A stretch of DNA of 64,000 nt from the NCBI GenBank assembly GCA_965113315.1, contig OZ220363.1; one strand, 5' to 3'. This document shows, in pieces, positions 2,125 through 58,484 of this stretch. A program made the position numbers and the translations under genes. The number at the start of each line of letters is the position of its first letter. Position 1 is the first letter of the stretch. Origin of the DNA: Podarcis vaucheri. Taxonomy: Eukaryota. Below the pieces are notes generated by a model. That model did not search any database. It saw nothing but the letters and a program-made list of their open reading frames with translations, and was not told the origin of the DNA.

Positions 2125-3330
2125 TAATAATAATAATAATAATAATAATAAATTTTATTTATATCCCGCCCTCCCCAGCCGAAGCCGGGCTCAGGGCGGC
2201 TAACACTAAAATAGTGCAACATTATAAAAACATCATAAGAATTAATTAAAATCAGAATTGATGGCAACCATAAACTAAAGTATTGTAAAGATTGCCAAAG
2301 GAGGGAGTCAGGCTGTGCCCTAACCAAAGGCCTGGTGGAACAGCTCTGTCTTGCAGGCCCTGCGGAAAGATGTCAAGTCCTGCAGGGCCCTTGTCTCTTG
2401 TGACAGAGCATTCCACCAGGTTGGAGCCGCAGCCGAAAAAGCCCTGGCTCTAGTTGAGGCCAGCCTAACCTCCCTGAGGCCTGGGACCTTCAAGATGTTT
2501 TTATTTGAGGACCGTAAGTTCCTCTGTGGGGCATACCAGGAGAGGCGGTCCCGTAGATACGAGGGTCCTAGGCCGTATAGGGCTTTGAAGGTTAAAACCA
2601 GCACCTTAAACCTGATCCTGTACTCCACCGGGAGCCAGTGCAGCTGGTATAGCACCGGATGAATGTGATCTCGCAGCGAGGACCCCGTAAGGAGTCTCGC
2701 TGCGGCATTCTGCACCCGCTGGAGTTTCTGGGTCAGTCTCAAGGGCAGCCCCACGTAGAGCGAGTTACAATAATCCAGTCTGGAGGTGACCGTCGCATGG
2801 ATCACAGTGGCTAGGTCAGGGCGAGAGAGGTAAGGGGCCAACTGCTTAGCTTGGCGGAGATGAAAAAATGCCGCCTTTGTTATAGCTGTAATCTGCGCCT
2901 CCATAGAGAGGGAGGTATCGAAGATTACACCCAAACTCTTGACGGACGGTGCTGGCACTAATTGCACCCCCGCAAGAGATGGGAGTTGCCCCCTCAATCC
3001 CATATCGTCCCGTCCCAGCCAGAGGACCTCTGTCTTCGAAGGATTTAACTTCAACCGGCTCCCACGTAACCATCCAGCCACAGCTTCCAAGCATCTGATC
3101 AGTGTGTCTGGGGCCGAGTCAGGATGGCCATCCATCAACAGATAGAGTTGGGTGTCATCAGCATACTGATGGCAGCCCAGCCCAAAACTCCGGACAAGCT
3201 GGGCGAGGGGGCGCATAAAGATGTTAAAAAGCATCGGGGAGAGAATCGCACCCTGAGGCACTCCACACACCAAGGAGTGGCGGGATGACAGTTCCCCCCC
3301 AAGCGCCACCCTCTGTCCCCGACCAGACTG
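2125..3330 (-). mobile_element. L2-clade LINE, 5'-truncated, young
   Basis: Minus-strand RT frame, 3' UTR ending in the stem-loop GCCGCCCTGAGCCCGGCTTCGGCTGGGGAGGGCGG, and a (TTA)n tail at 2125-2150. Confidence 0.92.
2320..3327 (-). pseudogene. L2 ORF2 fragment: reverse transcriptase C-terminal half and C-terminal domain, uninterrupted
   Basis: Motifs GVPQGAILSPMLFN, HQYADDTQLY, SRLDYCNSL and LHWLPV..RI.FK are typical of L2 ORF2. The annotated ATG at 3357 lies in flanking DNA. Confidence 0.9.
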
Positions 3331-5440
3331 GGGACATTGCAGGCAAGGCTTGTGCATGAGCCCCTCAACAGTTTAACACCTCACATGCTGAAGTGAATGC
3401 CTGAACACAGCTTCAGTGGCTGAAACCAGAAAGGGATACTCAGTTGCACACAATATTTAAGCAAATGGAACTCCTGGTTTTTCCTCTGGCTTTATCTGCA
3501 CATTTAGGAACTTTTGGCTATGAAAGCAACACAGGAGCAGGAACGGGAACTTGGTGTGTGCCCCAAAATGGCATCCACACACAGGGTGCATACACTCCGA
3601 AGAAGGGCATAGCTACCAAGATATCATACGCTGGGTTAAAATTTGCCTTGCAGCACTCCGTATTTTCCTTCATGTTTCTAAAGGAAGATGAAGAAAATAA
3701 AAGCCTATTAAAATGATTCATTCACCTGTCTCACATATGCAATTCTTTGCTCCTTTTCCTCCTTGTACAAATCTTACTGGCAAGAGGCATGTCTGTGTCT
3801 TAGCAGCAGAGGAATAAAGCAAGCTTGTACAAATTTAAATAATTAGCCAGCAATCAACCCAAAATTGCATATGACTTTTATATTTTTAGGATCAAAATGT
3901 TAGCTCAGAAGGGATAATAAGGATTGCAGTGGCCTCCATAGATGGTTTCGTTTGGTGTTTTTTAGCTGTCATTTCTGAGCCTTGCTTTAAAACGTTCTAC
4001 AAAAACAAGTTCATCCATCAGTCAAATTGATATCAAGCATTCAGACTCAAAGATGGGCAAGTTCTTTGGATTGTCAAAAAAAAAGCCAAAAAAATCTAAT
4101 ATTACTGGTCAGATGGTTGCAAAGGAAGAATGTGGTGGCTGCATGATGAGTCCTGGTTTCTCATACAGTAAAATGCGGAAGAACTAGACGCTTCATATTC
4201 TGCAGCACTAGAACAGCAGTGGGGAATCCTCTGGCCCATAGGCCACTCTTGGCCTGCCAGCAGCGTCCAATTTGTCCCACAAGGCTATTTCCCCAAAAAG
4301 TACATCCGCCTGTCAATCAGTTGGTGTCACTTGTGATAGGCAGGAGTGCTGGCTTCTCAGCACCAGACAATTCAAAGAGTAGGTTAGCAAGGGGCAATAT
4401 ATTTTGAGAAGTAATGTGTTACATTTTTTAAGCTAAAATGCAAGGAAGCAGAACAGGTCAGCCCAGCAGAGAATGAACCCCATGGGCCTGTATCCTGCAA
4501 ACTGTTTCCGTTATTATTTAACCTTGGGGTTTAAATCATGGCTCTTTAGAATGTACTCCACTTCACTGTTCTTGGGTTTCATTTATTTATATCAATGACA
4601 GGGAATTTCGGGATGATTTGTATTTTGAATGCATGCAAAACCACAGTTGAAACAAATACACTTTATATGTTGAGCAGTACCCAAGCTCAGGCAGAGAGTT
4701 CATCAGTCTTCTTCACTCTTGTATGTTACAGGGATTGCCTCATTTTTGTATACAAATCAGCTCTTAATGAAGATCTCCTGAAATGGCTAATGGACTAGCT
4801 ACCAAATGAATTACCTTGCAGGTTCTTGGACTTTCTTTCAAGAATCTTTGAAGATTCCGATCACTTTACCCTATTATCTTATTCACATGTTTTATACAAT
4901 ATAATTGCATGGGGAAAAACCCATTTGTACATTATATATTTTTGACACTGTTCATGCCCGCTGTTTCCTAACTTTACCCCTCCTGTCTCTTGGCCTGTTT
5001 ACCACTACCCCACCACTGAAGAACAGGATAAATAAAAACAATGCTTTAAATAAATAAATTGTTATTTGTGAATGTTTAACCACAGCCCAAAACATTGAGT
5101 TTAAGAAGGTGAAGCTTGTCTGGTGTCCTTTCTCTCCTTGAGTCTGCTCAACTCTACTATTAAAGGCACAGAAGCAGAGGTAGTATTATAAAACAAAAAT
5201 TAAAGATGACTGCACAGCTGGGACTGTATACACCATCCCTCCCATTCTCTTCAAATGCTGATGTCCATCATACAACCAGTGCAAATAGCAATAGGCACAG
5301 CCTGTAGAAGTGGCAAGTCAAGTAAGAGATAGCACCACTCAAATGCTCACTAGTGTATATAATCCCTGCATAACTTGGTGTGGGTAGGCAGGCAGGCAGC
5401 ACTGGAGCATGAGAGAAGAAGGGAGAAGTGCACACTACCC

Positions 5441-8560: not shown

Positions 8561-8798
8561 TTAACCACGTTTGAAAGGCCCATGTATTGTTTCTCGACGC
8601 TTAAAGATAAGGACACCCTACAAGCCTATTTCATTATTCATCCTGTATGCCCAATGGAAGAGTCAATGTTAATGATGACCACTTAAGAGTGCAAGAGTCA
8701 AATAATGCTATACCTATCCCTCCCTCTGCAGCTCAGTTTCCTTGCAAAGACACAGAACTCATCTACGAATGCCACGAAAGTTATATAGCACAGAATGC

Positions 8799-8800
<2 letters not shown>

Positions 8801-8842
<42 letters not shown>
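8801..8842. repeat. (AT)n microsatellite, left flank of the Penelope-like element
   Basis: Pure AT run. Confidence 0.97.
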
Positions 8843-8845
<3 letters not shown>

Positions 8846-9190
8846 GGTTTTGGTGTCTTCGGGTGTCTTCCCGTGTAAGAGTCGGGGTGTCTGTGCGACG
8901 TTTCGACGAGGTCTCACTCGTCATCTTCAGGCTGGTGCTTTCGGCTTCTTGTTACTGGAACAGAGCAGAGTCTGGTGTTTGAGTTCCTATAAATACTGTT
9001 GAGGGGTGTGGTGTATAGCCTCCAACGTTCTGGGTAGAGAGGAAGTTCCTAGATTAGTGTGCCTTTTCTTCTTTTGTTCCTTAATTACTTGAGGGATATC
9101 TTGGGTGATTTCATGAGTGATATTCTGAATATCACTGGGTGGGTCATTAATTACTTGAGGGATATCTTGGGTGATTTCATGAGTGATATT
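8841..9190 (-). repeat. Left (inverted) pseudo-LTR, 350 bp
   Basis: Position x pairs with 19611-x; no mismatch noticed by eye. Confidence 0.93.
8895..8932 (-). ncRNA. Minimal type I hammerhead ribozyme-like motif (left pLTR copy)
   Basis: Reverse complement of the motif at 10679-10716. Confidence 0.7.
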
Positions 9191-9216
9191 GGGTGATTTC
9201 ATGAGTGATATTCCCG

Positions 9217-10380
9217 TGGCCACACGGGAAAGAAAAACTAGATAGCTTCCTCACACATCTCAACAGCCTACACCCCAAAATACAATTCACTATGGAAATA
9301 GAAGACAACAACCAACTCCCCTTTCTTGACGTCCTAATCTACAAAAAACCTGATGGCTCCCTAGGACACACTATCTACCGGAAAAAAACACACACCAACC
9401 GCTACTTACATGCACAATCACACCACCACCCTGCACAAATAAACTCCGTAGCCAAGACTCTCATCTCCAGAACCAAACGCCTGGCTGACAAAGACCACTT
9501 GACAACTGAGTTACAGAATCTCTCAAATGTGTTAATCGCCAATGGATACCAGAAAAACAGGGTTACGAAGCTAATCCAAAAAGAAACACCCCCCAAAAAC
9601 CAAGACACAGAAGAATACAATGGCATGGCCCTCCTTCCTTATATCAAGGGCACTACAGACAAAATCAGCAAAATCCTCCATAAACACAATATCAAAACAG
9701 CCTTCTGCACCAACCAAAAAATAGCCAATATCCTCAGAAACCCAAAAGACAAAATCCAGCTGGAAAACCAAGGGGTCTATGAAATACCCTGCAAAGTCTG
9801 CCCAGCCACGTACATTGGACAAACAAACAGACGAATAAATGCACGTATCGCAGAACACAAAAATGCCGTCAAAAAAGAAGAAAAAACTTCCTCTCTTTTC
9901 CAACACATGAAAGAAACAGGACACGAAATTAATTTTGCAGATTCCAAATTGCTCTTTAACATGGAACATCACCACAAGAGAATAATCATGGAAGCCATCG
10001 AGATAGAGAAACACCCTCACAACATGAACAAGCGTGACGACACGTCCCGCCTGCCAGACATCTGGAAATTAGCCCTCCCCACAAAAACCGACACCAGAAC
10101 CAGAGGCACACAGAACGCCGTCACCAATCAACCACACCAGACCCAAACCCAGACCCTCTCCACAGACATATTACAGACTCCATCCAGCAACCAAACTATA
10201 GTGGCACCTCCGGATGCTGCACCCCCCTGCAATCCCTACACAGATCTGGCTGGCACAAGGCACAAAACCATAGCTCGCCCCTATACACGAAGCCAAGCCA
10301 GAGCACAACTAAATGCAGCACAGCCATCTTCTCAGAAAAACTCTTCACAAGCTCAAGAGGTCAAGACACGAGAGCTTTAG
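9217..10380 (+). pseudogene. PLE polyprotein fragment: RT palm end/thumb, linker, GIY-YIG endonuclease and ~100-aa low-complexity tail
   Basis: IQFTMEIE..NQLPFLDVLI, YRKKTHTNRYLH..SHH, GVYEIPCKVC..TYIGQT.R....RIAEH, and EAIEI. Frame is open to the stop at 10380. The catalytic DD motif is lost just upstream by truncation. Confidence 0.92.
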
Positions 10381-10394
10381 CAACTAATCTACAC

Positions 10395-10530
10395 TTAATG
10401 ACCCACCCAGTGATATTCAGAATATCACTCATGAAATCACCCAAGATATCCCTCAAGTAATTAATGACCCACCCAGTGATATTCAGAATATCACTCATGA
10501 AATCACCCAAGATATCCCTCAAGTAATTAA
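10395..10530 (+). repeat. 66-bp tandem duplication within the PLE 3' UTR/pLTR
   Basis: Identical units start at 10395 and 10461; each contains the hairpin AGTGATATT-CAG-AATATCACT. Confidence 0.92.
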
Positions 10531-10770
10531 GGAACAAAAGAAGAAAAGGCACACTAATCTAGGAACTTCCTCTCTACCCAGAACGTTGGAGGCTATACAC
10601 CACACCCCTCAACAGTATTTATAGGAACTCAAACACCAGACTCTGCTCTGTTCCAGTAACAAGAAGCCGAAAGCACCAGCCTGAAGATGACGAGTGAGAC
10701 CTCGTCGAAACGTCGCACAGACACCCCGACTCTTACACGGGAAGACACCCGAAGACACCAAAACCTGCAT
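10421..10770 (+). repeat. Right pseudo-LTR portion matching the left inverted arm
   Basis: Reverse complement of 8841-9190; contains TATTTATA (10616-10623) upstream of the hammerhead motif. Confidence 0.93.
10679..10716 (+). ncRNA. Minimal type I hammerhead ribozyme-like motif (right pLTR copy)
   Basis: Core CTGAAGA (10681-87), stem II GACGAG/CTCGTC with loop TGAGAC, GAAA (10707-10), palindromic ACGT stem III and a GTC cleavage triplet ending at 10714. Stem I is only 2 bp (GC/GC), and there is an extra T after the core. Confidence 0.7.
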
Positions 10771-10796
10771 TCCTGTACCCGTGAAAATCTACGAAA

Positions 10797-10798
<2 letters not shown>

Positions 10799-10844
<46 letters not shown>
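10799..10844. repeat. (AT)n microsatellite, right flank of the Penelope-like element
   Basis: Pure AT run. Confidence 0.97.
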
Positions 10845-10848
<4 letters not shown>

Positions 10849-11329
10849 ATATATAAAGCACAGAAAGTGGCCCTTTAAAAATATTAGCCTCCCTAATTAA
10901 AATGGGCCTTCACTGAAGAAGGCTGCATTCTGTATACTTTTACCTGGGAGTAAGTCCCATTGTACTCAAACATGTTGGACGGCAATGTAAAAGTGTTGGG
11001 GCTAGGGTGCAGTCCTAACTCCAAACCACACAGAGCTTCCTGGCAAGGTGGAGACACCACCATATTCACAATCCTGCTGCACACAGTGACTAAGAGGGAA
11101 GTGGAGAAAATTTCTTCCTAATCCCTGCAATAGCTCCAGGCAGGTGCAGCACTTAGATTGGTTTCAAGTCCCGTGCCTCCAGTGGCAGCAGGATCAGGTT
11201 GTGATCCAGCAGATTCCAGGCCAGCTTATCCCCTGGAATTCCCCATTTTGGGGTCAGCTGGTCTCCTGCCAACGCATTAAGCAGGAGAGAGAAGTCAGCA
11301 GTGGCAAAGTGAAACTTATGTCAGCTGGT

Positions 11330-11795
11330 AAGATCCGTATAGTTAAAGCCATGGTTTTCCCAGTAGTGATGTATGGAAGTGAGAGCTGGACCATAAAGAA
11401 GGCTGATCACCGAAGAATTGATGCTTTTGAATTATGGTGCTGGAGGAGACTCTTGAGAGTCCCATGGACTCCAAGAAGATCAAACCTACCCATTATTAAG
11501 GAAATCAGCCCCGAGTGCTCACTGGAAGGACACATCCTGAAGCTGAGGCTCCAATACTTTGGCCACCTCATGAGAAGAGAAGACTCCCTGGAAAAGACCC
11601 CGATGTTGGGAAAGATGGAGGGCACAAGGAGAAGGGGACGACAGAGAACAAGATGATTGGACAGTGTGCTCGAAGCTACCAGCATGAGTTTGACCAAACT
11701 GCGGAAGGCAGTGGAAGACAGAAGTGCCTGGCGTACTCTGGTCCATGGGGTCACAAAGAGTCAGACATGACTAAACGACTAAACAACAACAACAA
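11330..11795 (+). mobile_element. Bov-B (RTE) LINE 3' fragment
   Basis: Translation KIRIVKAMVFPVVMYGSESWTIKKADHRRIDAFELWCWRRLLRVPWT...LKLRLQYFGHLMRR is classic Bov-B; ends in a (CAA)n tail. Confidence 0.95.
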
Positions 11796-13094
11796 ATGGG
11801 AGACCAGGCTCAGTAGGCAGAGCTAAGCAGAGGGACTGAATCCAAACCCTTCCATAACCTAGTCTAAGGGTTTGTATTCTTATTATTGCTCAGTAAACAG
11901 ATCAGCCACATCAAGCATTGCTATACATCTCTATATACGTGTGTGACTGTGAAGCAGGTGCTTAGCTTTCTCCCATCCAAAGCAACGTCTAAAAGTGCTC
12001 AGCTTTGGCCAGATCAAGGCTAAACTGATAAAAACAGTTTTAAAACTTGCATGTTTAAAATTTGCACCATTAAAAAATTAGCAAAATATGGCAGTATATT
12101 GATCAAAAAGCCACAGTTCCGTAACGCAACACCGAAACGGAAGGCCTAGCACATACCAGGGAAATGAACACAATAATGCCCACATCTGAATGCAGCTACA
12201 GGTTTAATATCTCTGTGAAAACTAAGCCTAAATCTGGGAGCCAAGTTCAAATTCAAGACACCACTGTTGATCCTTGTAGCAGATCCACCGTTTAATCCAA
12301 GAAATATTCAATCCCCTCCTTTCCCTGGGAGAATTTCTGAAAAAGGTGATGGGGTCTGGTGGGGTAGAGGCGGGGGAGAACTAACTCCTACAACTCCTCA
12401 AGGAAAATATAAACTTGAACCCGGCTCACTCTTTGAAAACTACAGCCTATAAAACACTTTGCAAACTACTAAGAAAAAGGAACAGGCCTGGAGTAATTTA
12501 CATTCCATAACTAAAATATTAAGATTTATTTCCTCCTCGCTCTCTGTAGAAGTGGCAGCAACAAAGGATTTTTCACTGACATGTCACGAATATTGACAAA
12601 GCAAGCAAAGGTTTGTTTTTCCTCCCTCGTTCACAGTGCAAAGTCATGTACTTGCAAGTGATATTTATATGTGGCTTTCTTCAGCATCTTCTGCCTCAAG
12701 CCAGAAGCTTGTCTGCTGTCCCTTCATGTTGAGAACATGCAAGCTTGCTTGGTTTAAAAGGTCAGTTGTAGCTTGATGCACACAGACTCTGATGCAGAAG
12801 TCCTTTATGGGGGTGGGGAAGCAAAAAAGAAACCATCCTAATATTAAGCAATATGTACTGTGATTTATTTCTTTTTTACAACTGAATGTGGGAACGAATA
12901 TGGACTTTTTTCTAATTTTCTATAGCATATTTCATAGTAAAAGTGATTTATTAAATTAAAGGCTCTTGCATTAAATCTAGGAGAAGCCCATGGTCACTGC
13001 AACCAGCAAAGCACGATATGTGATGTAATATTTGCACTCAGTAATCTTGCCTTGTTGTTGCTATTTTTAATTTTAAAAAACATCTGCAAAACTA

Positions 13095-13460: not shown

Positions 13461-13873
13461 TACTGAGCAGGAGATGATATATATGGTAAAAAAAAATGAG
13501 GTGCCAATACTCATTTATTGATAAACGTGCCAAGGTGCTAGCACAAAATGGCTGCCAAAAGCAGCAAAAAGAGAGGTGATGGTATTCTTTACCATTGAAT
13601 ACTGCCATAAAAAGGCATACAAATAACAGATTAAGGTGTCAATCCACAAACCACTAACTCTGTAACAGACCAACTAAAGTTAGTAATACAGTTCCATAGT
13701 ATGAATCATGGGGCTTTTCACACGTTCTATGAATACACGAAGTGGGGTGGTAATCATGATCACCTCTACTATCTCTGCCACCAACCTCCACATGTTCATC
13801 TGAAGGTCTGAACAGAGCCTACAAACATGCAACAGTACACGGATACAGCAGAACTAGTCACCCATTGCAAATA

Positions 13874-14114
13874 CAGTGGTACCTCTAGCTAGGAACTTAA
13901 TTCGTTCCGGAGGTCCGTTCTTAACCTGAAACTGTTCTTAACTAGAGGCATGCTTTTGCTAATGGGGTCTCTTGCTGCCGCTGCACTGCCAGCACACGAT
14001 TTCCGTTCTCATCCTGGGGCAAAGTTCTCAACTTGAGGTAACTCTTCCAGGTTAGCAGAGTTTGTAACCTGAAGCATTTGTAACCTGAGGCATTTGTAAC
14101 TCAAGGTACCCCTG
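13874..14114. mobile_element. Tc1/mariner (Tigger/pogo-like) MITE, family A
   Basis: TA-CAGTGGTACCT...AGGTACCCCTG-TA with internal TAACCTGAAGC repeats; homologous to the copies at 28912, 33486, 58259 and 63121. Confidence 0.88.
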
Positions 14115-15553
14115 TATTTGTGCAATATGGCAACCTTCAATTTGCACTTAAAACTCAGGGAAGTTGGAGGCTCACGGGTGTTAAGGTACAGTTTGGAGGT
14201 TCCCAGTTGGGGGGCGGTTCCATGTTGCAGTGGGTTGAATTAGCTTGTATCAGTTCAAAGTAAGAATGGCTATCTCCTGATCTGAGGGCAGGCAGGTTGT
14301 TTAATTCATTCTGAGCCAAATTTAAGAGAAGGGGGGAAGTGCTATCCACTCTTTTGTTTGAAAAAAAACTATCTAAAATTAAGGCTAAGAGAGTTATTAT
14401 TTTATTATTTATTAAATTTGTATACCACCATTCATCCACAGATCTCAGGGCAGATGGCTGTTGCTTATAATGTAACAATATTGCCCAGTTCTGGCTATAT
14501 TACTGAAAGTTTTCCTTAAGTCATTTCAGAAATCTACCCTGCTCCATTTTGCCATTACAAGTACTAAGATCATCAGTGTCAGTGGAAACGAAGTCCACAG
14601 AAAAGCACATGCATGTGTGAAATTAGCGCACATGATAATTTGCATGTGGGTGTTGTGTTTCTTCCTAAACATAAGCAGTTTCCATGTGGAAAAACCGTGA
14701 GTATATAGCAGCCCTTCAAGTAAGAGGTCTTCAAGGCTAATGAAAAATAATTTCTTCTTGGCAGTATCACGGCTAGATTCAGAGGCACATCCCTACGCAA
14801 GTTTCTCATGAAGACGTTTCCAAGTTATTTAGTCCACAAGTTGGGGCGGGGAGGAGGGAGAAGAATTGGCAACTGCACTCCCTTCATGGAGAAGTTTATC
14901 TGTGAATTAACTGATTAAAAGCAGAGCAGCTGAACTGCAATAGGAAATGGGTCGATAAGAGACCTTTAGTGGATGGGGAGCCATTGATCAATAATTACTT
15001 TTCTGCTAAAGAGTCTTTTCCTGAAGTAGCAGAGGCCCTCCTTTTGCATACATCTTCAACATTTGCATTAACCTTTACAGCGCAAGGATTAAAGACAATC
15101 ACACCACAGACATTCTATAAGCACTTGATTCTATCCCTTTCCCCCTTCTTCATCTCCCATTTAAAAACCTGGGCATGCTGCTTATTGGCCAAGCACTCCA
15201 CAACTCCCACCTACCTCCACACCTGTGCAGTTTTGTGACCTACTCAGCTTAATGCAGCCTACCAGCCGTGTATGGTGGCCTACCTAATTCCAGGGGTTTT
15301 TTCCTGCCTGCCAGGGACTTCAGCTTGGTGTGTCACAAATTGTGAAGGCCTTCTAGACATGTCCAATACAAGGACGGCAGGCATTTCTGGGGAGAAAGAA
15401 AAATAGAACGTCCAGGAAAACTAAACACTCTGAATATAGTTGTGCATCTTTCAACACCATTACGAGGGCGCTAATATAGGGAGCCAAGAGTGTCAAACCA
15501 GAGACCATCACCGATGGAATTCTTGGGCATATGGAGTTATTGGCCTGATCTTC

Positions 15554-15820: not shown

Positions 15821-15897
15821 GACCCAGATCAGAAACATGATGGAGAGCAAAGGTTTAAAGCCCCCTTATCTTCACTGTGTCGCAATACCATCTAGAC

Positions 15898-16033
15898 CAG
15901 GCATGGACAAACTTGGCCCTACAGATGTTTTGGGACTACAATCCCCATCATCCCTGACCACTGGTCCTGTTAGCTAGGGATGGTGGGAGTTGTAGTCCCA
16001 AAACATCTGGAGGGTCATGTTTGGCCATGCCTG
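15898..16033. mobile_element. 136-bp hairpin hAT (Charlie-like) MITE
   Basis: CAGGCATGG...CCATGCCTG with long inverted arms; perfect 8-bp TSD ATCTAGAC. Confidence 0.9.
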
Positions 16034-19000
16034 ATCTAGACCAAAGGCCCGTCTAGCCCAGCATCCTGTTTCCAACAAGGCTGACTTGGGGAGGGCTGTA
16101 AGCAGGACATGTGGACAATGGCTCTCTCCTTCTGTTGTTCCCCTACTGAGAGGCATGCCAAGTGATCCTGGAGTAGATATATTGAAGGTCCTGGTTCAAA
16201 AGAGCAGGGAAAGCCATCAGGAATAAAACTGTTAGAATGAGCAGATGGTCAAAGCAAAGGACAGGAGCTAGACACGGAAAGCTTGAGTGGCCTAAAATAC
16301 CTGGGGGAGGGAAATTCTAGAGAGTACCTGAAGTGGACAGGCATGATATAGGGCGTAACAGGGGATTCGTCCTGGGTAGCCTAGCGTCCAGGCATAGGAC
16401 CAAACTTCATGCAGTGCCAAATCCATTACTAAAAAAAACACATCATGGATTTTAGAGTTAGTAGTAGGCATGGAGGCAATTTTCATTGTGACTGCCGCAC
16501 TCAGGAAAGGGAGTGCCTCTCCAGCCAAAATTCTGACGAAAAGCAGCAGTAGGAGACCCCCCCCCCAGCAAATAGTAGTGCAGGGGGCTATTTTTATGAG
16601 AGTCATGGCTGAATCCTGGAGAGGGAAGGGCTGCTCCTCCCCTTCCTGCATGCTGCCATGCTGATTAAAATTGTCCCCACAACTATTATTATGACGCACC
16701 ACTCTCTCATTTGGAAGTCCTCTGATCTTCGTTGTGTGATGGTGCTCTGCAATTACTCAGTGATGAAGAAAATGCATTCTGCATACACTCAGGAGGCACT
16801 TACATATAATATATATAATAGGAATATATGAGAGCATTTAAAACTGATGCTAAGGCATCAGTAAACCAGGGCCCAAATTAAGCTCTGTTGATTTCCAAGC
16901 ATCTTGTTCCAGATGGTGGTAGTGGGCAGCCAATCATCATCCCACTTGCTTGTAGGTTACAGCAGCCTGAGAGCAACCTTCCAGAAGCCACATGTCATTG
17001 ATGGGTGGGACTGAAGTCAAGTGGGCAGGGGCCAGAGATACAACTCTTAACCCTGTGCAGTGGGCTACAGTCTCAGCCACACATTAAAAAAAGAACAGGT
17101 TTCTATGCTCATCTCTCTCCATCCTGGCAAGTGAGAAGCTTTTCTGCCATTCAAGGGCACACCCCAGCCATGGGGCACACCCATGGAGCAAGGCTGATGA
17201 AGAGTAAGAACTTGGGAAGAGTCCCAGCCGCCATTCAGAGAGGCCTGGGTAGCTGCATTCAGCCCTCAAGGCAAGAGCTTCCTCATCTCCGAGTTACAAA
17301 GTAAGTTCATAAATCAACTGTTGCACAAAGCAAACTTCTAGTGAAGGAAGAGGTGGACTGCGTGTTTAACTAAAGTCTAGTTCCAGTGCATTGTCATAAC
17401 TCAGTGGTGGGCAGACAGCAGACCAAGATCTGCTAGTCAATTTCCAATTGAGTGTTTACAATCAAAACATGTGACTCTATACTCCCAAAGTGGGGAATCT
17501 CTGATCTGTGGGCCCAATATGGCCTATCAGGCCATTTTTGGCACGCTGCACCCACTTTCACCGCACTTGGCAACATATGGGATACCAGGCACAGAAAACA
17601 AAACCGAGACTTGGAATTTCAAGCAGCCACTAAAATGAGGAAGAACTGGGAGTGGACTTTCAAGCACACTCCCAATTCTTCCTTTCAATCATCAGCTTGA
17701 ATTCAAGCCAGTGGTGCAAGAGATCTTTGTTCTGCATCTGCAACTTGAGCCACACCCACAAAGGAAAAGTGTTACTGTGGGTCATCTGATGTCACTGTGA
17801 CATTAAGTGACAGGTGGGCCACCCTTCCCAGCTGTCAAAATAGCCCACAAGGGGTGTGGGAACTCAGGATCCTGTTTGCTTACTGGATATTATTCCTCAC
17901 CTCTGCTGAGTCTGACTACTGGTCCATTTAGCTTAGTCTCCTCTGAAGCGACTTGGAGTGTCTTTCCAGAGGTCTTTCCCAGTCCTACCTGAAGATTCCA
18001 GGAATAGAATCCGAAACAGTTTGCATGCAAAGGATGTGCTCCACCACTGAGGATTTTGGCAAAACAGACTGAACTACGTAGAATTAATAAGGTACTTCTT
18101 ACATTCTTAAGGAAGAGTACATACTCAGAAACACTCAATAGAAAATTGTGTATGCCTTCGCTGTTAAAGGGATCCTAAAAACGAGCTCTCGCTTTGCCAT
18201 TTTAAACAACTGTATGTCTTCAAGGAGACCAGTAAAAGTAGGTAGACCACACAAAACTGAAGTCAGCTCACCTCTGTCAACTGCAAGCACCACTGCAAGT
18301 CAAAAACAGCACACAACTGAGGGGAGCACTCACTCCACTATTTTTTTTAAGGATTTCTCAAGTTGGTTGGAAATCTAGGGCAGCCAAGAGGAGTCTTGCA
18401 CTTCAGCTCTGAGCTGCAAATCCCTCTGCTTTTTGTTGAATACCTGGTTGCTCCTTCCCTCAGTACTGCTAATACACATCAATCCTAATTCACAACAGCC
18501 CCCTGCTGTTCCAATTCATTCACCTCCCCTGAGCAGAGATTGCAATTCAAGGCAAACTGTGAAATGCCTTGTGATGGGGACAAAAAGGCTCTCTAGGGAC
18601 AAGCTAAGGTCAGCAAACTTACTTTGTTTGGAACCTCTGATCCACTTCATCCTGGGTCTCCTGAGGTGACAAGAGCATGCACTAACCAAATGAGCCTTTA
18701 ACAGATTTGTCCAAAGGAGTGAATAAAGAAATTTACTTTGACAGCTATAATGGAACAAGTTCTGTAAACAAAACACAGCAGGAGAAAGTGGGGGGGGGGA
18801 GGAGGGAGGAAAGAGACCTCAGCATTTTTTCCATTATTATTTTTTTGAGAAGTGCTCTGTCTGCTTTAAGGACAAGTATTCTGATAACAGTGTAGCAAAG
18901 TGTTCAAAAGACTTCCTTTACATTATCGCAGTAATCCTTACAATGGCTGTTTAAGGCAGAAGTGTATTATCTCCATAAGGTGCTGGGGCCAAGCAAAGGG

Positions 19001-20328: not shown

Positions 20329-20460
20329 CAGGCTTCCTCAACCTCAGCCCTCCAGATGTTCCGAGACTACAATTCCCATCATCCCTGAGCACTGGGTCCT
20401 GCTAGCTAGGGATCATGGAGTTGTAGGCCAAAAACATCTGGAGGGCTGAGATTGAAGCTG
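20329..20460. mobile_element. Hairpin hAT MITE, variant with a damaged right end
   Basis: Shares the core CCCTCCAGATGTT..GACTACAATTCCCATCATCCCTGA..CACTGG with the copies at 15898, 50347 and 51765. Confidence 0.75.
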
Positions 20461-25689: not shown

Positions 25690-26545
25690 GATTGCAGGCC
25701 CAGGCTGCATATTACCCCACCCCACCCCCGCTCAGGTGAGCTACCAATAAAGGAGACCACACAGTTGAATGGGATCAAATCAGGCCACAACTTTATTGAC
25801 AACAGATGAAATGGTTTGGCATAGGCATTGGGTAAACATTTATTTCCGGGCTGCCTACCAGAAATGACATCAGGGTCAACCCGGCAGCAGGGATTCCTAT
25901 GACTTACATCAAATAGGGGGATCCCTGAAGGGATCCCCGCCTCTAGGAGTGCTGATGCCCAAGCCCCCTGTCTGGGCAAATGGACAGAAGCAACTCCATC
26001 ATGGATCCCTTTAACGAGATACCCTATTTCTGGAGGGGAATGCGAGGGTACACCCCCCTTCCAACCAAGGCTAAGCTCACCCAATGCCAAAACTGCCAAA
26101 GTTGTGATGATTGCTATGGGGTAGGCAAAACCTCCAGGTCATAGCCAATTCGCTTGGTAGGCAAATTCCTACCTGGCCTCACTAGTACGACGACCACCGC
26201 AGCCATAGAAAGGTCAATTCAATGAGTACAGTCATACCTCGGGTTGAATGTGCTTCAGGTTGAGCGCTTTCAGGTTGCGCTCCGTGGCGCGTTACTTCCA
26301 TGTTTCACCAATCGCGCATGCACACTCAAAATGATGTCACGCGGATGCGCGGAAGCGACAAAACGCAACCAGCAGGCGTGCCATCGTGCCTTATGTTCCA
26401 TTCAGGATGTGAACAGGGCTCCGGAACAGATCCCGTTCGCATCCCGAGGTACCACTGTAAATGCAAAATTACCAGAGTGGATGAGTTGATCCAACAAAGA
26501 AGAGCTGGGCATCGTGGGCTGGCATGGGCTGTTTTAAATCCCCCG
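25690..26545 (-). mobile_element. Unclassified LTR-like repeat interrupted by a MITE
   Basis: On the minus strand, TATA-like GATTTAAAAC (~26535) and AATAAAGTTGTGGCC (~25797); GC/CpG-richer than the flanks. Boundaries are uncertain. Confidence 0.35.
26229..26457. mobile_element. Tc1/mariner MITE related to family A, with a different interior
   Basis: TA-CAGTCATACCTCGGG...CCCGAGGTACCACTG-TA; CpG-rich interior. Confidence 0.82.
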
Positions 26546-27995: not shown

Positions 27996-28911
27996 GTTAA
28001 AACACATGAGCACGCTTCACATATAAAATTAGTACTTGTTAGAACTACATTCAGGCTTGCTTCTTCCTTCACACATGCCTCCTTTTTTTTTTTTTTTTAG
28101 GTGCTTCCCCAAACCCCGCATACCTTCCTATCTGAGTACTTTTCCCCTGGCACAGGAGAAGGCAAACTCCAGGGCTTTTCCTGCTCTTTCAAGCAACAGA
28201 AACAGAACCCGTAAAAAGGCAGCTCCTTTCCTGCTTTCTTTCTCTCCTGAACATGAGAGGCACAGAGCAACAGATCTGGAACATAAAGCATTATTAATAG
28301 CCACTGTCCTGCCATGATGAGTCACCTCACCACATAAGCAGAATCACAAGCAGGTTTTTTTGTGTGTTTTTTTTAAAAGCCCTTTCCCAACAATCGTAGA
28401 CCAACAAGGTAATTTATTGGCAGCATTAGAAGTGAAATACCAATCAATTGCACTAATATTGAAAGCACACTATGGTATATCATTGCCTAGCAAGGGAGGG
28501 AGAAGTACTTGCGGAATCCAACACAGTGATTCAAAACTCATTCCATCCTTCTGGGAATAATAAGATCCCTTAGATAGCTATTAGAGACATTCTTTTAGTC
28601 ACCTAGCCATAAATATCCCATAAGCAAGAAGTGCTGCGGCGAATGCAGAAATCCGGTCACTGTGCCATCGTAGAAAATTATCCCCCCCCCCTTCTAAAAG
28701 CAGATCGGTTCTATGGGAAATTTCCAAATGGGCGGGAGAAAAGGTGTCCCACGGTTTCAAAGTCACAGGCATACATACCTGCTCAGATTTCCCTGTACTG
28801 TGTCATGTTCTAGGACAAGGATAGGGAATATATTTCAGCTAGATGGCCACATTCCCTCCTTGGGGAGCTACCTAGAGGTCCCCCCAGAGGCAAAAGTGGG
28901 CAGAGCAACTA

Positions 28912-29138
28912 CAGTGGTATCTTGGGTTAAGAACTTAATTTGTTCCGGAGGTCCGTTCTTAACCTGAAACTGTTCTCAACCTGACGTACCACTTTAGCGA
29001 ATGGGGCCTCCCGCTGCCACTGCCGCCACTGCCATGCGATTTCTGTTCTCATCCTGAAGCAAATTACTTAACCCGAGGTACTATTTCTGGGTTAGCGAAG
29101 TCTGTAACCTGAAGCGTCTGTAACCTGAGGTACCACTG
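28912..29138. mobile_element. Tc1/mariner MITE, family A
   Basis: TA-CAGTGGTATCT...AGGTACCACTG-TA. Confidence 0.9.
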
Positions 29139-29157
29139 TAATGTGAATTGTACCTTT

Positions 29158-31400: not shown

Positions 31401-33485
31401 AGCTCTAAAGCTGCGTTGTGACTTGGGATAGTTATGTCATAACTGGAAAATTGTGGCCCCACCTACAACTGAGCCCTGAAAGGTTTTCACAAGGGAATGG
31501 GACCCTCAGGCTGAAAAGAGGCTTCCACTCTTGCCCTAGAGCTTCAGTGGAAATTAAGCAGGTATGGACCTGGTCAGAGAAATGGAGAATGGAGAATGGT
31601 TCACTAGAAGGTGAATGCTGTTACTTATGGAGCCAAAGTAGAGCCCCCCACATACAAGACAAAGGTATCACTAAGTTTAAAGGAGCCCCAAAGTCTGCAG
31701 GAATACTACAATTACGGGGGAAACTCCCCCCACAAAAATAGGACTGAGCATGCACAGTGGTCATGTTATGCTTACTTTTTTGACAGTCAACTGTGTGAGA
31801 TTGAATGGATTGGTTGGAATCCAGAAAGTAGTATTCCATTCTGCTAACTTTTGTTGTAGTTCTGACTTGCGTTATTGATCTTATACCAGCACCTGATCAT
31901 TTCAAAAAGGCACGTGTGTGTATCTTTATAGCTATGCTGTAGCTATTTAGCTACATAGAGAAACTGTATGCCACTCCATGATTCTAGGATGAAGGGCAGT
32001 ATAGAAATTTAACAAACAAAAATGTAACCTCAGAAGCAGCCTCACATTGAACTTCATCAGTTAAGTCTCTCTGAAGCCAATACGTATAGACCATCGTGGT
32101 TGTCTTTGTTTGCAAAGCCACAGCCCAACAGAAATCAAAAAGCAACTGATAAAACTATAAATGCACCACAGCATATTTGCCAAAAACAAATTGAATTTGA
32201 GCGGGCACACTCTGAGGTCACAGACACATACTGTTCAGGGTGCATTTGTGTGAAAAAGAATCCAATCAACCTCAGGCCTACTCCTGATGCGGGGCCATCC
32301 ATCAAAGGAGCTGAGCTTGCTTCACATAACAATAATAGCCACCTCACCCACGTAACAAATGGGCACAAAAAGAAAGTGATGGGCCTTGAGTTATGCAGTC
32401 TTTAGAACAAAACCAGAAGCTTGGGTTCCAAACATTGCAGTTTGCTCACAAGAGTTGCCTCCGGCTTGTGGGGCAAAAGGCCAGAACACAGACTAAGAAA
32501 TTTACAGTGCAACAAGTGTAATATTGTGGTATTCCTGCTCAGGGTTCCAGACAGGTAGCAAAGCCCTCTTCCATTGCACTCCATTTAATTCCACTTGGGA
32601 CAGTTTTCCATCGTCATGTATACAGTCAACATTCCACAGCCACTAAGCATGCTGTCTTCATCGGGCTTCTTAAGAGAGCTCCCTCCTTACTTTTTTCTCT
32701 CAAGGTAGTCTCAGCGTTTTCTAACACCTACGTCTTCTGCATAGGTGGGGCAGTTGTGGATACATAAGGATCCAAACGTCGGTGTCAGATCTACATATTT
32801 TGCCATAGCGTGAGGAAGTCTGCACTCCCACCACCCACCCCTCCTGCAGGTTTGTGTCTAATCATCCTTGCTGCCACCACTGCTACCAAGAGAAAGATGA
32901 CTACAGGTTCATGTCCCATCCTGCCAATGTGGCAGCTTCTTGCCTTCCTCTTCCTGGGGTGAGCAAGAAGGTAGGGCCATTCCTAAAAAACAATCCCTTG
33001 GAAGTTGGCACCTCTGCACATTCACCAAGTCACTAAGTTTATTCTGCCTTCTAGCATAAGTTAAGTCAAGACTCAGACTAGTTTTGCTTTACAGACTCCC
33101 TCTTTTACACAAATTAATTGGTTTGAATATGGGTGAAGCATGCATGCAAACCTGTTGTCCATTAGCAAAAATAGAAATAGTGTACAATTTCAGGAGGTGG
33201 GAGGAGGCAAATTTCCAGGAAAAGTATGACAATTATTTCCAGGACAACAGTCAAAAAAAAAAAAAAAGGAGAGGGAGAAGGAAAGGAAGAACTGCTACAG
33301 ACACAGCTTCCAGAACAGATTGGAGGAGGTGCTATTCCTATTTTAACAGTGCCCAAATCTGCTTGAGGCAGGCTGCTTTATTCCACCTAGTGGTAGGGTA
33401 GAGCTCAGCCACTTGGCTACATTTGGGCAGCCTGCCTGAGCCAGCATACTTTGGACATAATTAAGAAGCAACAAACTATCAGTTA

Positions 33486-33711
33486 CAGTGGTATCTCAGG
33501 TTACATACGCTTCAGGTTACAGACTCCGATAACCCAGAAATAGTGCTTCAGGTTAAGAACGTTGCTTCAGGATGAGAACAGAAATCGGGCTCTGGCGGCG
33601 CGGCAGCAGCAGGAGGCCCCATTAGCTAAAATGGTGCTTCAGGTTAAGAACAGTTTCAGGTTAAGTACGGACCTCCAGAACGAATTAAGTACTTAACCTG
33701 AGGTACCACTG
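33486..33711. mobile_element. Tc1/mariner MITE, family A (opposite orientation)
   Basis: TA-CAGTGGTATCTCAGG...CCTGAGGTACCACTG-TA; the interior is the reverse complement of the 58259 copy. Confidence 0.9.
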
Positions 33712-33959
33712 TATTTCATTTAAATAATAATATTAATACTGTAATTATAATAATATAATAGGGTGTCATTTCAATGGTCTTAGCAAAGGCACCAAAATGT
33801 CAGGCCAGTGAGATCAGATGCCTGTTCATTGCTTACATTTTTTTAGTCATATGAAGAATTCATTCTAGGATGGTACGGTACATTTGAGCAAGTTCTGCAC
33901 ACTATCTCACTAGAGTGGTACATGCCCTGCTTATCCCCCACTTGGATTACTGCCATTCT

Positions 33960-43100: not shown

Positions 43101-45099
43101 TGGAGAACGGTGATATCATCGGATATCAGCTCCATCAAGGAGCCATCATCACCAACATGATGAAATCAAATGTGGGGGCCTCAAATTTTAATTTATTTAT
43201 TTACTGACGTGACATTGTTCCACAGACATCCCTTTCCCCTCCGTTTCCCCCCACCCCACCCCCCGTTGTTGTCATATAAAGGATGATAAGGAATACACAT
43301 ATTTTGCTCCCAAAGCATACTCCTCTACCAAGAGATACCCCGAAAGCTCCAGAAAGAGCAACCTCACTGGCCAAGACTCTTGTTTATATTTCATTGAATC
43401 AATTAATACAGCCCCAGTTGTTTTAAGTATCACCGATATTTTGGTGTTCGTAGGTAAAACCCCGAGACGTCTCCCCTTTCCCACAATAGAGAGGAAAGAG
43501 CGATGGAAAATAATTCCATCGATGCCCATAATAAAGGGGCACAAAAGCACATACATACAGAAAGGCAGCAAACTAAAATGGTAACCGTCATCTCTCGCGG
43601 AGGGGGGGAAAGGGGGGGCTTTTCACCAGCCTTTAGATAAACTTGTAGAACTGGGTACCGTGGACCATTTTAACTTAAAATGAGAGCGACAACACCCCGG
43701 CGTCTCATGGTATATTTAATGGCCGATTCTACACGGTGAACAGACAAGCTCTCCTTGGCATCTTCTTTTCCCCACCCAGATAACATCCTTCTCTCTGACT
43801 TTTCGCTAGACTAGTTAGGAGTTCACCCCCGCAAAATCCAGTCCCCAAAATATACCATGGCACAAATACTGGTTAGCGGTCATAGGGGGAAGGAAAAAAT
43901 TCTCTCAGAGATCTGAGCATTTGACACTGGAAAAAATCTCATGCTACAATTGAAGAAGAATAAAAATGAATTGGTTGGGGGAAGGGGGGGAGAAGCTATT
44001 TTCATCGAAATTCTGAATATTCAGGCCAAAGAAGAAATGAAGAATGAGAGGTTGTTAGGTAAGGAGGGGGACCCTGGCATTTCAAAAATGGTTTCGGGAA
44101 TTTATTTATTTATTGGTTATTCTGCCTTTGAGGTCTTTTATTACCTACGCATTCTTTAGTTTATTTTAACCAAAATTGCAAAAAAAACAACAGAGCGAAT
44201 AAAATTCACTTTTGTGGGAGGAAAGAAAAATGTGCTTTGGTTTGGTGTTGTTGAAACAAAATAATTTCAGAGATTTTGTTTCCTCATCATAAAAATAAAA
44301 TAAAATGTAAATGTAAACAAAAGACCATGACACTTGCACGCAGCACTAGAGCTGGAACCCATTGGAAAGGGAATTACATCACTGTCCTTCATGGTTTAAA
44401 ATTGGAAAATAACTGAAGGTTTGGATGTTGGGGGGTGATTTTTTTAATTTAAAAAAACCTGGGTATTTCGCACACATTTTTAATTTATTTATTTTGCATT
44501 AAGAAATCATCCAACCAACCTTTAAGGTCACTCCTTGCCTGGAAGCTCACAGCACTTGCTCGTAGTGGAAGTTTTCAGGCAAAGACAAGTACTAAATCAT
44601 TAATATAAACAAATGGAAGGCGGGGAAGGAAGATTCTTGTAATAGATCCAAAGTAGTATGGGGGGGGAGATCCTTCAAATCTTACTCCCTTTTCATTCCA
44701 CCCCCCTGATAAAAAATATTCAGGGTTGGGATGGGGGGAAAGAACCTAAAGAAGATCTAATATTCTTACAAAAAAAAATATTTTGGCTTCTTAAAGAGAT
44801 CCCTGCCACAGTTTAACCCAGCACTGCCTCTTTCCCTCAAAATAACCATTTTATTTTAAAGCCAAGTGCTCAGTGCAACTGATCGTCGAAATGAATCGAG
44901 TTAAAGGTACTGGTCAAGGTTTGGAGTTTGTGCTTGTCACCTTTAAAAAAGAAGAGGAGGAGGTATTTGGAGAAGATGTGCAGTTTTCCTCACGCTCAGG
45001 CACACGTAAAAATTACTTTCTGGGGATGAGAAAATCCAGTATGAGGGGAGAAATAACTTTACAAAATCCTGTCCACCATAATAAATCTCTATAATACTG

Positions 45100-46030
45100 A
45101 GGGTAGGCGTTTTGGGCAGGCTTGGGGGGGGTGTTTTCTTTTCTTTCGAAGACCCACTCTATTCTTCACAGCTCTCTCTGGTGAGAACTTGGAGCACCTA
45201 ACACCTTCCGAAGCGGGGGAATCTCTCGAGTGGGCGCGCTGAAATTCTCCGTCCGTCGTGGGGAGCGAGGCGTTGTATTCCATCCTAGGGAACCATCTCC
45301 TTCTCTCTCCCGCCCGCCGCCACCGAGAAAAGTCTTACCTTGGTAGTTGAGAAGCGAGTGGGGTTGTTTAACCAACTCTTTGTTTGTTTCCTTCTTTGGG
45401 GGGCCGCTAAGAAATCCAGGGGTGTCTCTTGCCTCTCTCTCTCAGCAAGAGAGTGTGGTGGGAGGGGAAGCGCGAGGCGGGACCGGGAGGGCGTTGTCGG
45501 AGGCGCAAAAACGCGGGCTGCGAAGCAGGCTGAGGGAACGCGCGATGCAGGCAGCGAGGAGCGAGGGAAAGCTTTGGCGCGCCTCAGCCCCTCTCTCCGC
45601 GAGTTGCGTGCGAGGAGAGATGCGTAGAGCGGAGCGCTCTGCCTGAGACTGTCGGAGGAGCCCAGGAATTTCACGCACTCCGGAGCCGGCCCCTCCCCTC
45701 TCCGGCGCGCAGACCCCAGCATTTAAAGGGACAGCCGCGGCTGTGTGTAATTCGGGGCTCGCGCTCCTCCCAGCGCTGTTTTGCAAACAGCTGAGAAGAT
45801 GTAATCTGGGGACATCCTCAAGCCCAGGGATGACTAAGAGGCAGGTGCTCGCCAGCCCCGCTTTCTCACGCCGCAAACTCCAACTGGGGAAGGCAGATAA
45901 CGCGCGCGGCTCCTTCTCTAGGGAAAAGCTACGGTCAATCGAGGCGGGGGGGGGGGTTAAGCCAATTGGCTTCTCCAGAAATTAAGCAGGAGGCGAGGGA
46001 ACAGGCTCTCATAGCACCGGAGGGTGGGTT
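45100..46030. promoter_or_regulatory. CpG island / Pol II promoter
   Basis: Dense CpG and high GC; GC box GAGGCGGGG (45941), palindromic double CCAAT GCCAATTGGC (45961-70), and minus-strand TATA-like CCCTTTAAATG (~45720-45730). Confidence 0.85.
45339..45700 (-). other. Putative non-coding first exon of an unidentified minus-strand gene
   Basis: Begins ~25-30 nt downstream of the TATA-like motif, has no ATG that I could see, and ends at a strong donor CAAG|GTAAGA (45339/45338). The TSS is estimated. Confidence 0.55.
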
Positions 46031-49085: not shown

Positions 49086-49302
49086 GCCCTACTGAATTCA
49101 ATACGACTTACTGCCAAGCAGATATGGCAAAGACTACATGCAACCTAAGCCTTATCAGACACTGAAACGCAATTAAGGTTGGTGCCTGCTATACTTCAGG
49201 GTGCTTACTGGGTTTTTACAATTCATATAGTAGTAAAGAATACTATAGACTAATTATTTTTTTATTTAAAAAAGCATTTTTTTTCCTTGTGTGGGAAAAC
49301 TT

Positions 49303-49472
49303 GTTGTTGTTGTTTAGTCATTTAGTCGTGTCCGACTCTTCGTGACCCCATGGACCAGAGCACGCCAGGCACTCCTGCCTCCTGCAGTTTAGTCAGACTC
49401 ATGTTTGTAGCTTCGAGAACACTGTCCAACCATCTCGTCCTCTGTCGTCCCCTTCTCCTTGTGCCCTCCATC
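49303..49472 (-). mobile_element. Bov-B 3' fragment
   Basis: Reverse complement matches ~11615-11795; 13-bp TSD TGTGGGAAAACTT (49290-49302 and 49473-49485). Confidence 0.92.
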
Positions 49473-50346
49473 TGTGGGAAAACTTACAGCCTTCTAAATA
49501 TCAGCATCCTCTTAAAAATAGCTAGGAACAAAACATATGCTCACATGATCTTCCTTCAAAGAGGTCAAGCAGGAGTCTTGCTGAAACAAAACAGAAATTT
49601 GCCACAAATGCACATTGTAGAATCCCACTGGTTTTCCACTGGTACAGCCAGTGCACCTCCAGCCTGAAGACCTATCCATTACTGCTTACACCAGCATCAC
49701 TATGATGTTTATGCAAATGCCTCCATACTCACTTTTGGCCACACCCACTGCTGGCATTTAGCACCTGGAGGATGTTCTGAATGCAACCCTCTATCCAAAA
49801 AAAGGTTAACAGTCCCTGTCTTAGGGAGACATTTTGCACCTCTCCAAAGCACTCCTTTGCCTTAAATTTTTAGCACAACCATAGTGTCCTGCAGGGTGCA
49901 GCTGGAGATGTTTTGTGCAGTATGAAGAATTGTGAAGTGGAAACTAAGCTTTGGCGCTGATATGGAGTTCTTACTGAGAACTAAGCGGTTTTTTAAAATA
50001 TATATATGTACATAGGGGAATATAAGAAAATGAAAAATAAAATACATATGAATTTTAATATTTTCAGTCCTATAGTAACTGTATATCTGAGTCTTCCTTG
50101 CCCCTCCATTTCTTGCAAAATAGCTCCACTTTTCCTTCATCACTGTGGTTTTCTTTCTCATTTTTCCTTCCTCCCACTTGCAGTTTCATTCCCTTCCCTC
50201 CCCCCACATCTTTTTTTTTTTTGAAAAAATTTCAAGGCATAGAACATTTGTGGACCAGGGAGGGTGCACCATTAACTATTCAGTGCAGGGCCAAGGCAGC
50301 TTGGAATAAACTCTGGCTTAGTCAAATGTTTGTGATCACCCTAGAC

Positions 50347-50482
50347 CAAGCATGGGCAAACTCAGCCCTCCAGATGTTTTGGGACTACAACTCCCATCAT
50401 CCCTGACCACTGGTCCTGTTAGCTAGGGCTGATGAGAGTTGTAGTCCCAAAACATCTAAAGGGCCAAGTTTGCCTATGCCTG
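50347..50482. mobile_element. 136-bp hairpin hAT MITE
   Basis: Inverted arms; perfect 8-bp TSD CCCTAGAC. Confidence 0.9.
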
Positions 50483-51695: not shown

Positions 51696-51764
51696 GTTTC
51701 TAAAGTGTTGTTATGGGGTCCGCACACACAAAGGCAGGAAAGTAGTCCTTCCTTCATTCTATAG

Positions 51765-51900
51765 CAGGCGTAGCCAAACTTGGCCCTCCAGCTGTTTTGG
51801 GACTACAATTCCCATCATCCCCGACCACTGGTCCTGTTAGCTAGGGATGATGGGAGTTGTAGTCCCAAAACAGCTGGAGGGCCAAGTTTGGCCATGCCTG
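51765..51900. mobile_element. 136-bp hairpin hAT MITE, young
   Basis: ~57-bp near-perfect arms; perfect 8-bp TSD TTCTATAG. Confidence 0.92.
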
Positions 51901-56092: not shown

Positions 56093-56132
<40 letters not shown>

Positions 56133-58258: not shown

Positions 58259-58484
58259 CAGTGGTACCTCGGGTTAAGTACTTAATTCGTTCTGGGGGTC
58301 CGTTCTTAACCTGAAACTGTTCTTAACCTGAAGCACCACTTTAGCTAATGGGGCCTCCTGCTGCTGCTGCACCGCAGGAGCACGATTTCTGTTCTTATCC
58401 TGAAGCAAAGTTCTTAACCTGAAGCACTATTTCTGGGTTAGCGGAGTCTGTAACCTGAAGCGTATGTAACCTGAGGTACCACTG
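58259..58484. mobile_element. Tc1/mariner MITE, family A
   Basis: TA-CAGTGGTACCTCGGG...GAGGTACCACTG. Confidence 0.9.

Follow-up and report, generated by a model that had tools for sequence, protein, structure and literature searches.

Penelope-like elements (PLEs) of the Penelope/Poseidon clade are described, in PMC8557442 and PMC3846280, as inserting in 5′-truncated form with an inverted pseudo-LTR (pLTR) and a one-sided tail of 30–40 bp; their pLTR contains the first codons of the ORF and a two-way TATA-like motif, palindromes occur at the inverted junctions, where they were interpreted as the result of self-priming (PMC3846280), and the endonuclease carries a CCHH motif and lacks a zinc finger in the linker. 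Minimal hammerheads in PLE pLTRs are likewise reported in PMC4209133. The best described individual element is Poseidon_Ac (PAc), from Anolis carolinensis, which targets AT-rich DNA and has a C-terminal GIY-YIG endonuclease; according to Frangieh et al. (2024; PMC11167929), PAc is predicted to form a dimer and cuts and extends both DNA strands, and two reverse transcriptase (RT) start sites, one of them at +111 to +118, bound its tail. Initiation by PAc is described there as non-homologous, and both this paper and PMC8557442 state that the formation of the inverted repeat and of the tail is an open question.

The element analyzed here (positions 8,841–10,800) is the sole copy in the 64-kb window, that is, the whole 64,000-nt stretch of DNA that was analyzed, and neither blastn nor tblastn retrieved a second copy from it. 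It is almost certainly an EN+ PLE of the Penelope/Poseidon type, inserted as a 5′-truncated copy, and consists of an inverted pLTR arm without tail (8,841–9,190, minus strand), a truncated ORF (9,217–10,380, plus strand), the 3′ pLTR, whose portion mirrored in the left arm spans 10,421–10,770 (plus strand) and whose 5′ boundary is not defined by the present copy, and a one-sided tail (10,771–10,800, plus strand). The arms are exact reverse complements, with 0 mismatches in 350 nt. The locus thus shares with the Penelope/Poseidon clade all the characters listed above, and differs from it in lacking an upstream direct pLTR and in a private 66-nt duplication within the pLTR. The first-pass annotation had assigned the sequence to an EN+ PLE with a 5′-truncated body, mismatch-free inverted pLTRs and an extension on one side only, and to a lizard family; the arms, the right-only tail, the CCHH motif and the nearest named relative, a Podarcis muralis RT-GIY-YIG protein 95% identical to the ORF, agree with it in all these respects. 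This architecture is textbook for a PLE, and all the structural features of the single insertion have already been described for these elements. The locus by itself is therefore ordinary, and its worth is that of a lead, residing in the matched element ends, both of which read GCAT into the flanking (AT)n, and in an ancestry nested among insect sequences.

A stop-to-stop frame of 391 aa occupies positions 9,205–10,380 (plus strand), of which the element-derived part starts at a Trp codon at 9,217 and would encode the C-terminal part of the RT (presumably the thumb), a linker, a GIY-YIG endonuclease and a low-complexity C-terminus. A search of longer proteins returned 42 matches among 793 candidates, the best being P. 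muralis LOC144326219 (XP_077778802.1, here P0001), which contains both RVT_1 and GIY-YIG; the ORF is colinear with its residues 314–692, with 361 of 379 residues identical, which makes a lacertid the probable host. The first residue of the frame corresponds to residue 314 of P0001, whose motifs FDV and YVDD are at residues 216 and 306; the entire catalytic core of the RT is thus gone and the copy is unable to make RT. Its non-autonomy had been anticipated from a truncated RT active site; the conclusion stands, although the RT motifs are wholly absent and not partly cut. The RT core is retained by PAc, by P0001 and by a 742-aa gene model from Crotalus. The uninterrupted frame of some 388 codons that had been claimed is indeed free of stops, but its last ~10 codons, from about position 10,350, are unlike those of P0001 and of a second relative (P0043), because a one-base frame shift at 10,348–10,353 (plus strand; seen as a frame change with tblastn), in the low-complexity region downstream of the endonuclease, displaces them with respect to both. 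Most of the residues that differ from P0001 lie outside the catalytic core in proportion to length (283/289 identical residues in the core and 78/90 in the C-terminal region; Fisher p = 9e-5), a pattern to be expected if selection acts on the lineages that transpose.

The endonuclease (9,772–10,035, plus strand) was recognized by its motifs, a 107-row alignment and a fold match. It begins with the motif GVYEIPCKVCPATYIG at 9,772, in keeping with the GVY..C..C..YIG pattern noticed previously, and its CCHH residues correspond to Cys codons at 9,790 and 9,799 and His codons at 9,904 and 9,922, with conserved R, E, and N; in the alignment, C192, H230, H236, and E259 are invariant and C195 and R210 are present in at least 90% of the rows. 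Cysteines occur in the stop-to-stop frame only at positions 168, 196, 199, and 342, and a motif scan of this frame found no CX2-5CxxC zinc finger between RT and endonuclease. The presence of CCHH together with the absence of the linker finger places the element in the Penelope/Poseidon type, following the definition in PMC8557442; membership of Neptune, Nematis or Naiad was discarded, given the lack of the linker finger and a C-terminal, not N-terminal, endonuclease. The Pfam GIY-YIG profile matched with E = 6.6e-4 and 20.4 bits, below the 22.6 cutoff. A structural model built from the 107-row alignment (pLDDT 90.6) is predicted to adopt the GIY-YIG fold: the top three Foldseek matches were all to the catalytic domain of I-TevI (probability 1.00, target TM 0.68–0.75, E 0.02–0.06), with no match at E ≤ 0.001. 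A sequence search of the PDB with P0001 did not yield any solved PLE structure; its 35 matches at E ≤ 1 were all distant RTs or polymerases, including TERT at E of about 0.9.

Each arm carries a candidate minimal hammerhead, with a CUGAAGA core, a 6-bp stem II and GAAAC-GUC, at 10,681–10,714 (plus strand) in the right arm and 8,897–8,930 (minus strand) in the left. The descriptor scan gave three matches on both strands of the window, two of them in the arms, as compared to a mean of 0.4 in 40 shuffles. Cleavage is nevertheless only predicted, because an Rfam scan of positions 8,700–10,900 returned 0 hammerheads and stem I, by inspection, has just 2 bp; the 15 Rfam matches at E ≤ 1 all fell on the AT tracts, and those to miRNAs were discarded as repeat noise. 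The A of the ORF start codon (10,687) is position A9 of the hammerhead core, and C3 and G8 immediately precede that codon, as in PAc, where cleavage is placed about 25–26 nt after the start codon (PMC11167929); the same layout here predicts an equivalent cleavage. The first 38 codons of the element ORF extend through the pLTR and tail (10,687–10,800, plus strand) and have homologous peptides in records from Laticauda and Micrurus. The pLTR also contains the perfect 66-nt tandem duplication (10,395–10,530, plus strand), with a 10-bp hairpin in each unit, which is present as well in the left arm, whereas P0043 reads through one unit only, and a two-way TATA-like motif at 10,616–10,623. The mirror image of the latter is a TATAAATA box in the left arm (8,988–8,995, plus strand), canonical in sequence and putative in function, which the inverted arm directs toward the endonuclease-coding body. 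A read-through transcript crossing both arms would be expected to fold into a 350-bp hairpin. Since the pLTR, hammerhead and tail cis-signals are kept, a read-through transcript could in principle be mobilized in trans. On balance we favor, with some reserve, a copy that was dead on arrival and was inserted in trans by the intact Penelope/Poseidon RT-endonuclease of a squamate family.

Both ends of the element read GCAT followed by (AT)n. The left (AT)21 tract (8,801–8,842) represents either the target microsatellite or a target duplication, the right (AT)23 tract spans 10,799–10,845, and these are the only two tracts of at least six AT/TA units in the window. Counted from the ATG, the element stops at +82 to +84 on the left and at +112 to +114 on the right. 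The AT at 8,841–8,842 is common to the left arm and the microsatellite, as demonstrated by the right arm; AT/TA make up 10.6% of the dinucleotides in the body. At the right end, the equivalent 2-nt overlap (10,799–10,800) is deduced from a conserved His codon, because no master sequence was found. Consequently, the extension previously described as 28 nt is confined to the right side as claimed, but measures 30 nt (10,771–10,800 or 10,769–10,798) once the shared AT is counted alike at both ends. A target-site duplication is not measurable, because the ends sit inside the AT tract. Outside the AT tracts, the unique flanks at 8,781–8,800 and 10,851–10,873 show a direct similarity of about 22 nt, with a local score reached by 0.4% of about 3,000 random pairs in a post hoc comparison; a small and old tandem duplication that included the microsatellite may be the reason.

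A 47-aa peptide from the pLTR and tail gave three matches among 1.84e9 representatives, the third of which, P0164, was set aside as an unrelated repeat protein; a search with it for a full-length N-terminus produced 0 matches among two candidates. The other two matches are gene models, one from Laticauda and one from Micrurus, whose alignment extends through ENLR and is followed by IYI or IHTHTHTH, so that the snake ends stop within 0–2 codons of the homologous tail-end codon; we read these peptides as related ends continuing into (AT)n and (AC)n, respectively, as judged from their sequences. P0001 and the 742-aa Crotalus model align over 557 residues from RT to endonuclease, with equal spans and 82% identity; as both are without the N-terminus, no full-length copy is among the sequences retrieved. 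As in PAc, the tailed end falls on a homologous codon: the tail-end codons read ENLRKH here and ESLRQH(I) in PAc, from our by-eye translation of the PAc template, and the terminal His of the lacertid element corresponds, also by eye, to PAc +115–117, within the RT start window reported in PMC11167929. While initiation by PAc is described as non-homologous, the ends of the lacertid element overlap the target by 2 nt, the overlap at the right end being the deduced one.

At the inner side of the left arm, 22 nt of the pLTR are copied again (9,189–9,213, minus strand; period 22, 2.1 copies, 100% identity), with a 2-nt (TT) microhomology and a stop at the apex of a pLTR hairpin located at 10,409–10,429. 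This re-copy runs into an 8-bp hairpin at the inversion junction (9,211–9,230), in which 9,211–9,218 pair with 9,223–9,230 (−9.3 kcal/mol); stems of at least 8 bp are found at 10 of the 1,522 positions of the body. Positions 9,211–9,213 (TTC) are shared with the re-copy and 9,214–9,216 are non-native templated bases, relatives having Ile before the junction Trp. The template of the eight junction bases is ambiguous, because the same bases match the reverse complement of pLTR positions 10,736–10,743.

Beyond the observed identity, truncation, end positions and junction anatomy, we infer cutting within (AT)n, priming from both target ends, stalling and joining through microhomology. The GIY-YIG endonuclease would cut the (AT)n tract, and both target 3′ ends would then prime reverse transcription within the pLTR RNA, at +82–84 and +112–114 from the ATG; the two priming sites would be 30 nt apart and each could pair 2 nt (AT/AU) with its primer. 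The right-hand cDNA would reach about 1.58 kb and stall just before the YVDD codons, whereas the left-hand cDNA, of about 350 nt, would stall at the pLTR hairpin. After a 22-nt slip-back and snap-back extension, their 3′ ends would be joined via a 3-nt microhomology, and the outcome would be a truncated body, an inverted pLTR and a one-sided tail. In the twin priming of L1, the opposite target strand supplies a second primer, and an internal segment becomes inverted; here, the second primer would act at a fixed position, 30 nt away from that of the first, and the inverted part would repeat the terminus, unlike in L1. The cutting and extension of both strands by PAc, together with its predicted dimer, make such a two-ended route natural, although PMC11167929, in the part available, draws no link between them and inverted pLTRs. 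We give this route an even chance for the present insertion, and extend it only tentatively, with somewhat less confidence, to the origin of the inverted pLTR and one-sided tail of PLEs in general. If true, a two-ended route primed by AT/AU would revise the claim that PLE initiation uses no target homology.

The main competitor, which we regard as rather unlikely, is a single-primer route: one tail-primed cDNA would stall, fold back and jump onto its own pLTR part, copying it in sense, and the endonuclease would resolve the product at the border of pLTR and tail, leaving a tail-less inverted arm. The 8-bp snap-back hairpin at the junction is in its favor, as is the identity of the arms down to the 66-nt duplication, expected from a single template, and both components have precedents in the literature, self-priming for palindromes of this kind (PMC3846280) and endonuclease-mediated resolution for the tail (PMC8557442). 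On the other hand, a 2-nt overlap puts the left end in phase with (AT)n, like a primed end, and the tail of PAc is explained by two RT start sites with extension of both strands (PMC11167929). A single locus cannot separate two-ended priming from self-priming of a single cDNA; a young family with pristine junctions, however, permits comparing both routes genome-wide, and the lacertid element would provide a second natural substrate beside PAc.

The absence of differences between the arms (0 in 348 nt) sets a 95% upper limit of 0.86% on their divergence, from which the insertion is probably younger than about 0.9–4.3 Myr, if the rate per site and year is taken as 5e-9 to 1e-9, values that are assumed, not measured. 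The label "very young" given to the element is thus sustained as an upper bound only. It is plausible that the family is still active, as judged from the available sequences, and its RT-to-endonuclease frames are colinear in the P. muralis and Crotalus relatives; in a different lizard, the green anole, Penelope insertions are reported as polymorphic (PMC7561263). The arms could also belong to an older insertion and have been homogenized by gene conversion, as could be suggested by the frame shift near 10,350 and by private differences from both P0001 and P0043 or, at positions that P0043 does not cover, from P0001 (e.g., D30, K113, Y134). We consider this very improbable, since the non-repeated body is also free of stops, the core is 98% identical to P0001, and both the scars at the junction and the repeats in the flanks have stayed pristine. 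The observed/expected CpG ratio is likewise 0.51 in the non-repeated body, 0.62 in each of the arms, which have 10 CpG apiece, and 0.52 in the whole element, vs. 0.26 in the rest of the window, which confirms that CpGs were retained in the arms, as had been noted.

That the inversion is an artefact of assembly or of library fold-back is less credible still: perfect identity of the arms would be expected from it, and PLE inversions are a known trouble for short-read assemblies (PMC8557442), but the one-sided tail fits what has been published on PLEs, the unique sequences on the two sides of the element differ from each other, and the junction contains templated micro-insertions instead of being a plain palindrome. 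Finally, the perfect repeats and their TA context would also be accounted for by a non-autonomous DNA transposon that had terminal inverted repeats of 350 bp, used TA as target site and had picked up part of a PLE. This hardly merits consideration when the repeats are themselves PLE sequence with hammerhead, ATG and first codons, with homologs in snakes, when one end has a 30-nt extension and when the right repeat leads without a break into the ORF, as it does in P0043.

Phylogenetic trees were built exclusively with database matches, and contain neither TERT nor Repbase references. Tree 1 included the window ORF and 147 of 162 proteins, after dropping 15 with fewer than 190 aligned residues; tree 2, the window ORF and 50 of the 162 proteins, chosen by hand (33 named and 17 unnamed); and tree 3 was derived from tree 2 by removing three long-branch rows and adding three named ones. 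Tree 3 grouped the window ORF with sequences from Podarcis, Phrynocephalus, Vipera, Ahaetulla, and Crotalus and one unnamed row (100/100). This squamate clade is nested in a larger one of 29 rows (100/98), in which a further 20 rows comprise 10 from beetles, two from cockroaches and eight unnamed, and a damselfly sequence is next outside it (95/93); the branches between these levels are not starred in tree 3, and the sister rows are unnamed. From this topology the lacertid/agamid/snake family is probably insect-derived, with mostly beetle relatives, within a sampling of top hits that has an unnamed outgroup. A single clade holding all squamate rows plus the Anolis sagrei protein P0137, a group set by host taxonomy after the trees were viewed, was rejected (p-AU 8e-67), which suggests that this family represents a squamate invasion separate from that of the anole element. 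P0137, assumed to be PAc-like, is about 50% identical to the lacertid element and falls outside its clade; by sequence, therefore, the lacertid element and PAc probably belong to different lineages. It appears doubtful that the two-ended, AT/AU-primed route in PLEs and an insect-derived second squamate invasion, recently mobile in wall lizards, both hold.

The relatives from Phrynocephalus, Crotalus, Vipera, and Ahaetulla, together with P0001, belong by sequence to the same family or lineage as the lacertid element; the ORF is 68% identical over 373 aa to Crotalus KAK9411220.1. Their records are unannotated or mis-annotated gene models. Without constraints, tree 3 joined the agamid with the lacertid (99/98), but a grouping of the agamid with snakes survived the AU test (p-AU 0.155), and we do not claim horizontal transfer between squamates. 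In the accessible parts of PMC12910113 and PMC6050309 there was nothing on PLE mechanism or on a lacertid family, and we found no literature on such a family, on insect-to-squamate PLE transfer or on PLE twin priming in a search whose scope left out most subscription journals; the family may already be named in Repbase or Dfam.

Pieces of this PLE family corrupt gene models of lizards and snakes. They are built into models from Laticauda (P0163 and P0166), Micrurus (P0165) and Ahaetulla (P0045); a snake MFS transporter model ends in pLTR/tail sequence, and a model designated "P2Y purinoceptor 1 isoform X3" is a PLE RT-endonuclease. Additionally, a PLE protein labeled as Escherichia coli (P0089) was placed near the Anolis PLE in tree 1, and probably results from contamination of a bacterial assembly.

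A Pfam scan of the 87 ORFs of the window gave a single match, to an unrelated RT at 2,323–3,372, and identified no host exons among them, although short exons would be missed; a bacterial promoter scan has no bearing on a eukaryote and was discarded. The RT match lies in a stop-free frame of 350 aa (2,320–3,372, minus strand; RVT_1, E = 4e-17) related to 55,650–56,120, which we take to be the 3′ portion of a further LINE, L2/CR1-like and fairly young. The segment at 11,290–11,800 (plus strand), some 500 nt away from the PLE, is presumably a 3′ fragment of an RTE/BovB-like LINE, with related pieces at 294–376 and 49,301–49,473. Other repeats are palindromic MITE-like sequences of ~150 bp (15,891–16,040, 20,338–20,455, 50,341–50,490, and 51,756–51,911; 75–90% identity) and dispersed SINE-like sequences of ~230 bp (13,864–14,120, 28,907–29,141, 33,485–33,716, 58,256–58,485, and 63,110–63,368; 78–96% identity). 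CpG-island-like segments occur at 45,001–46,000 and 26,001–26,500 (observed/expected ratio 0.74–0.89), possibly with a host promoter near 45.5 kb.
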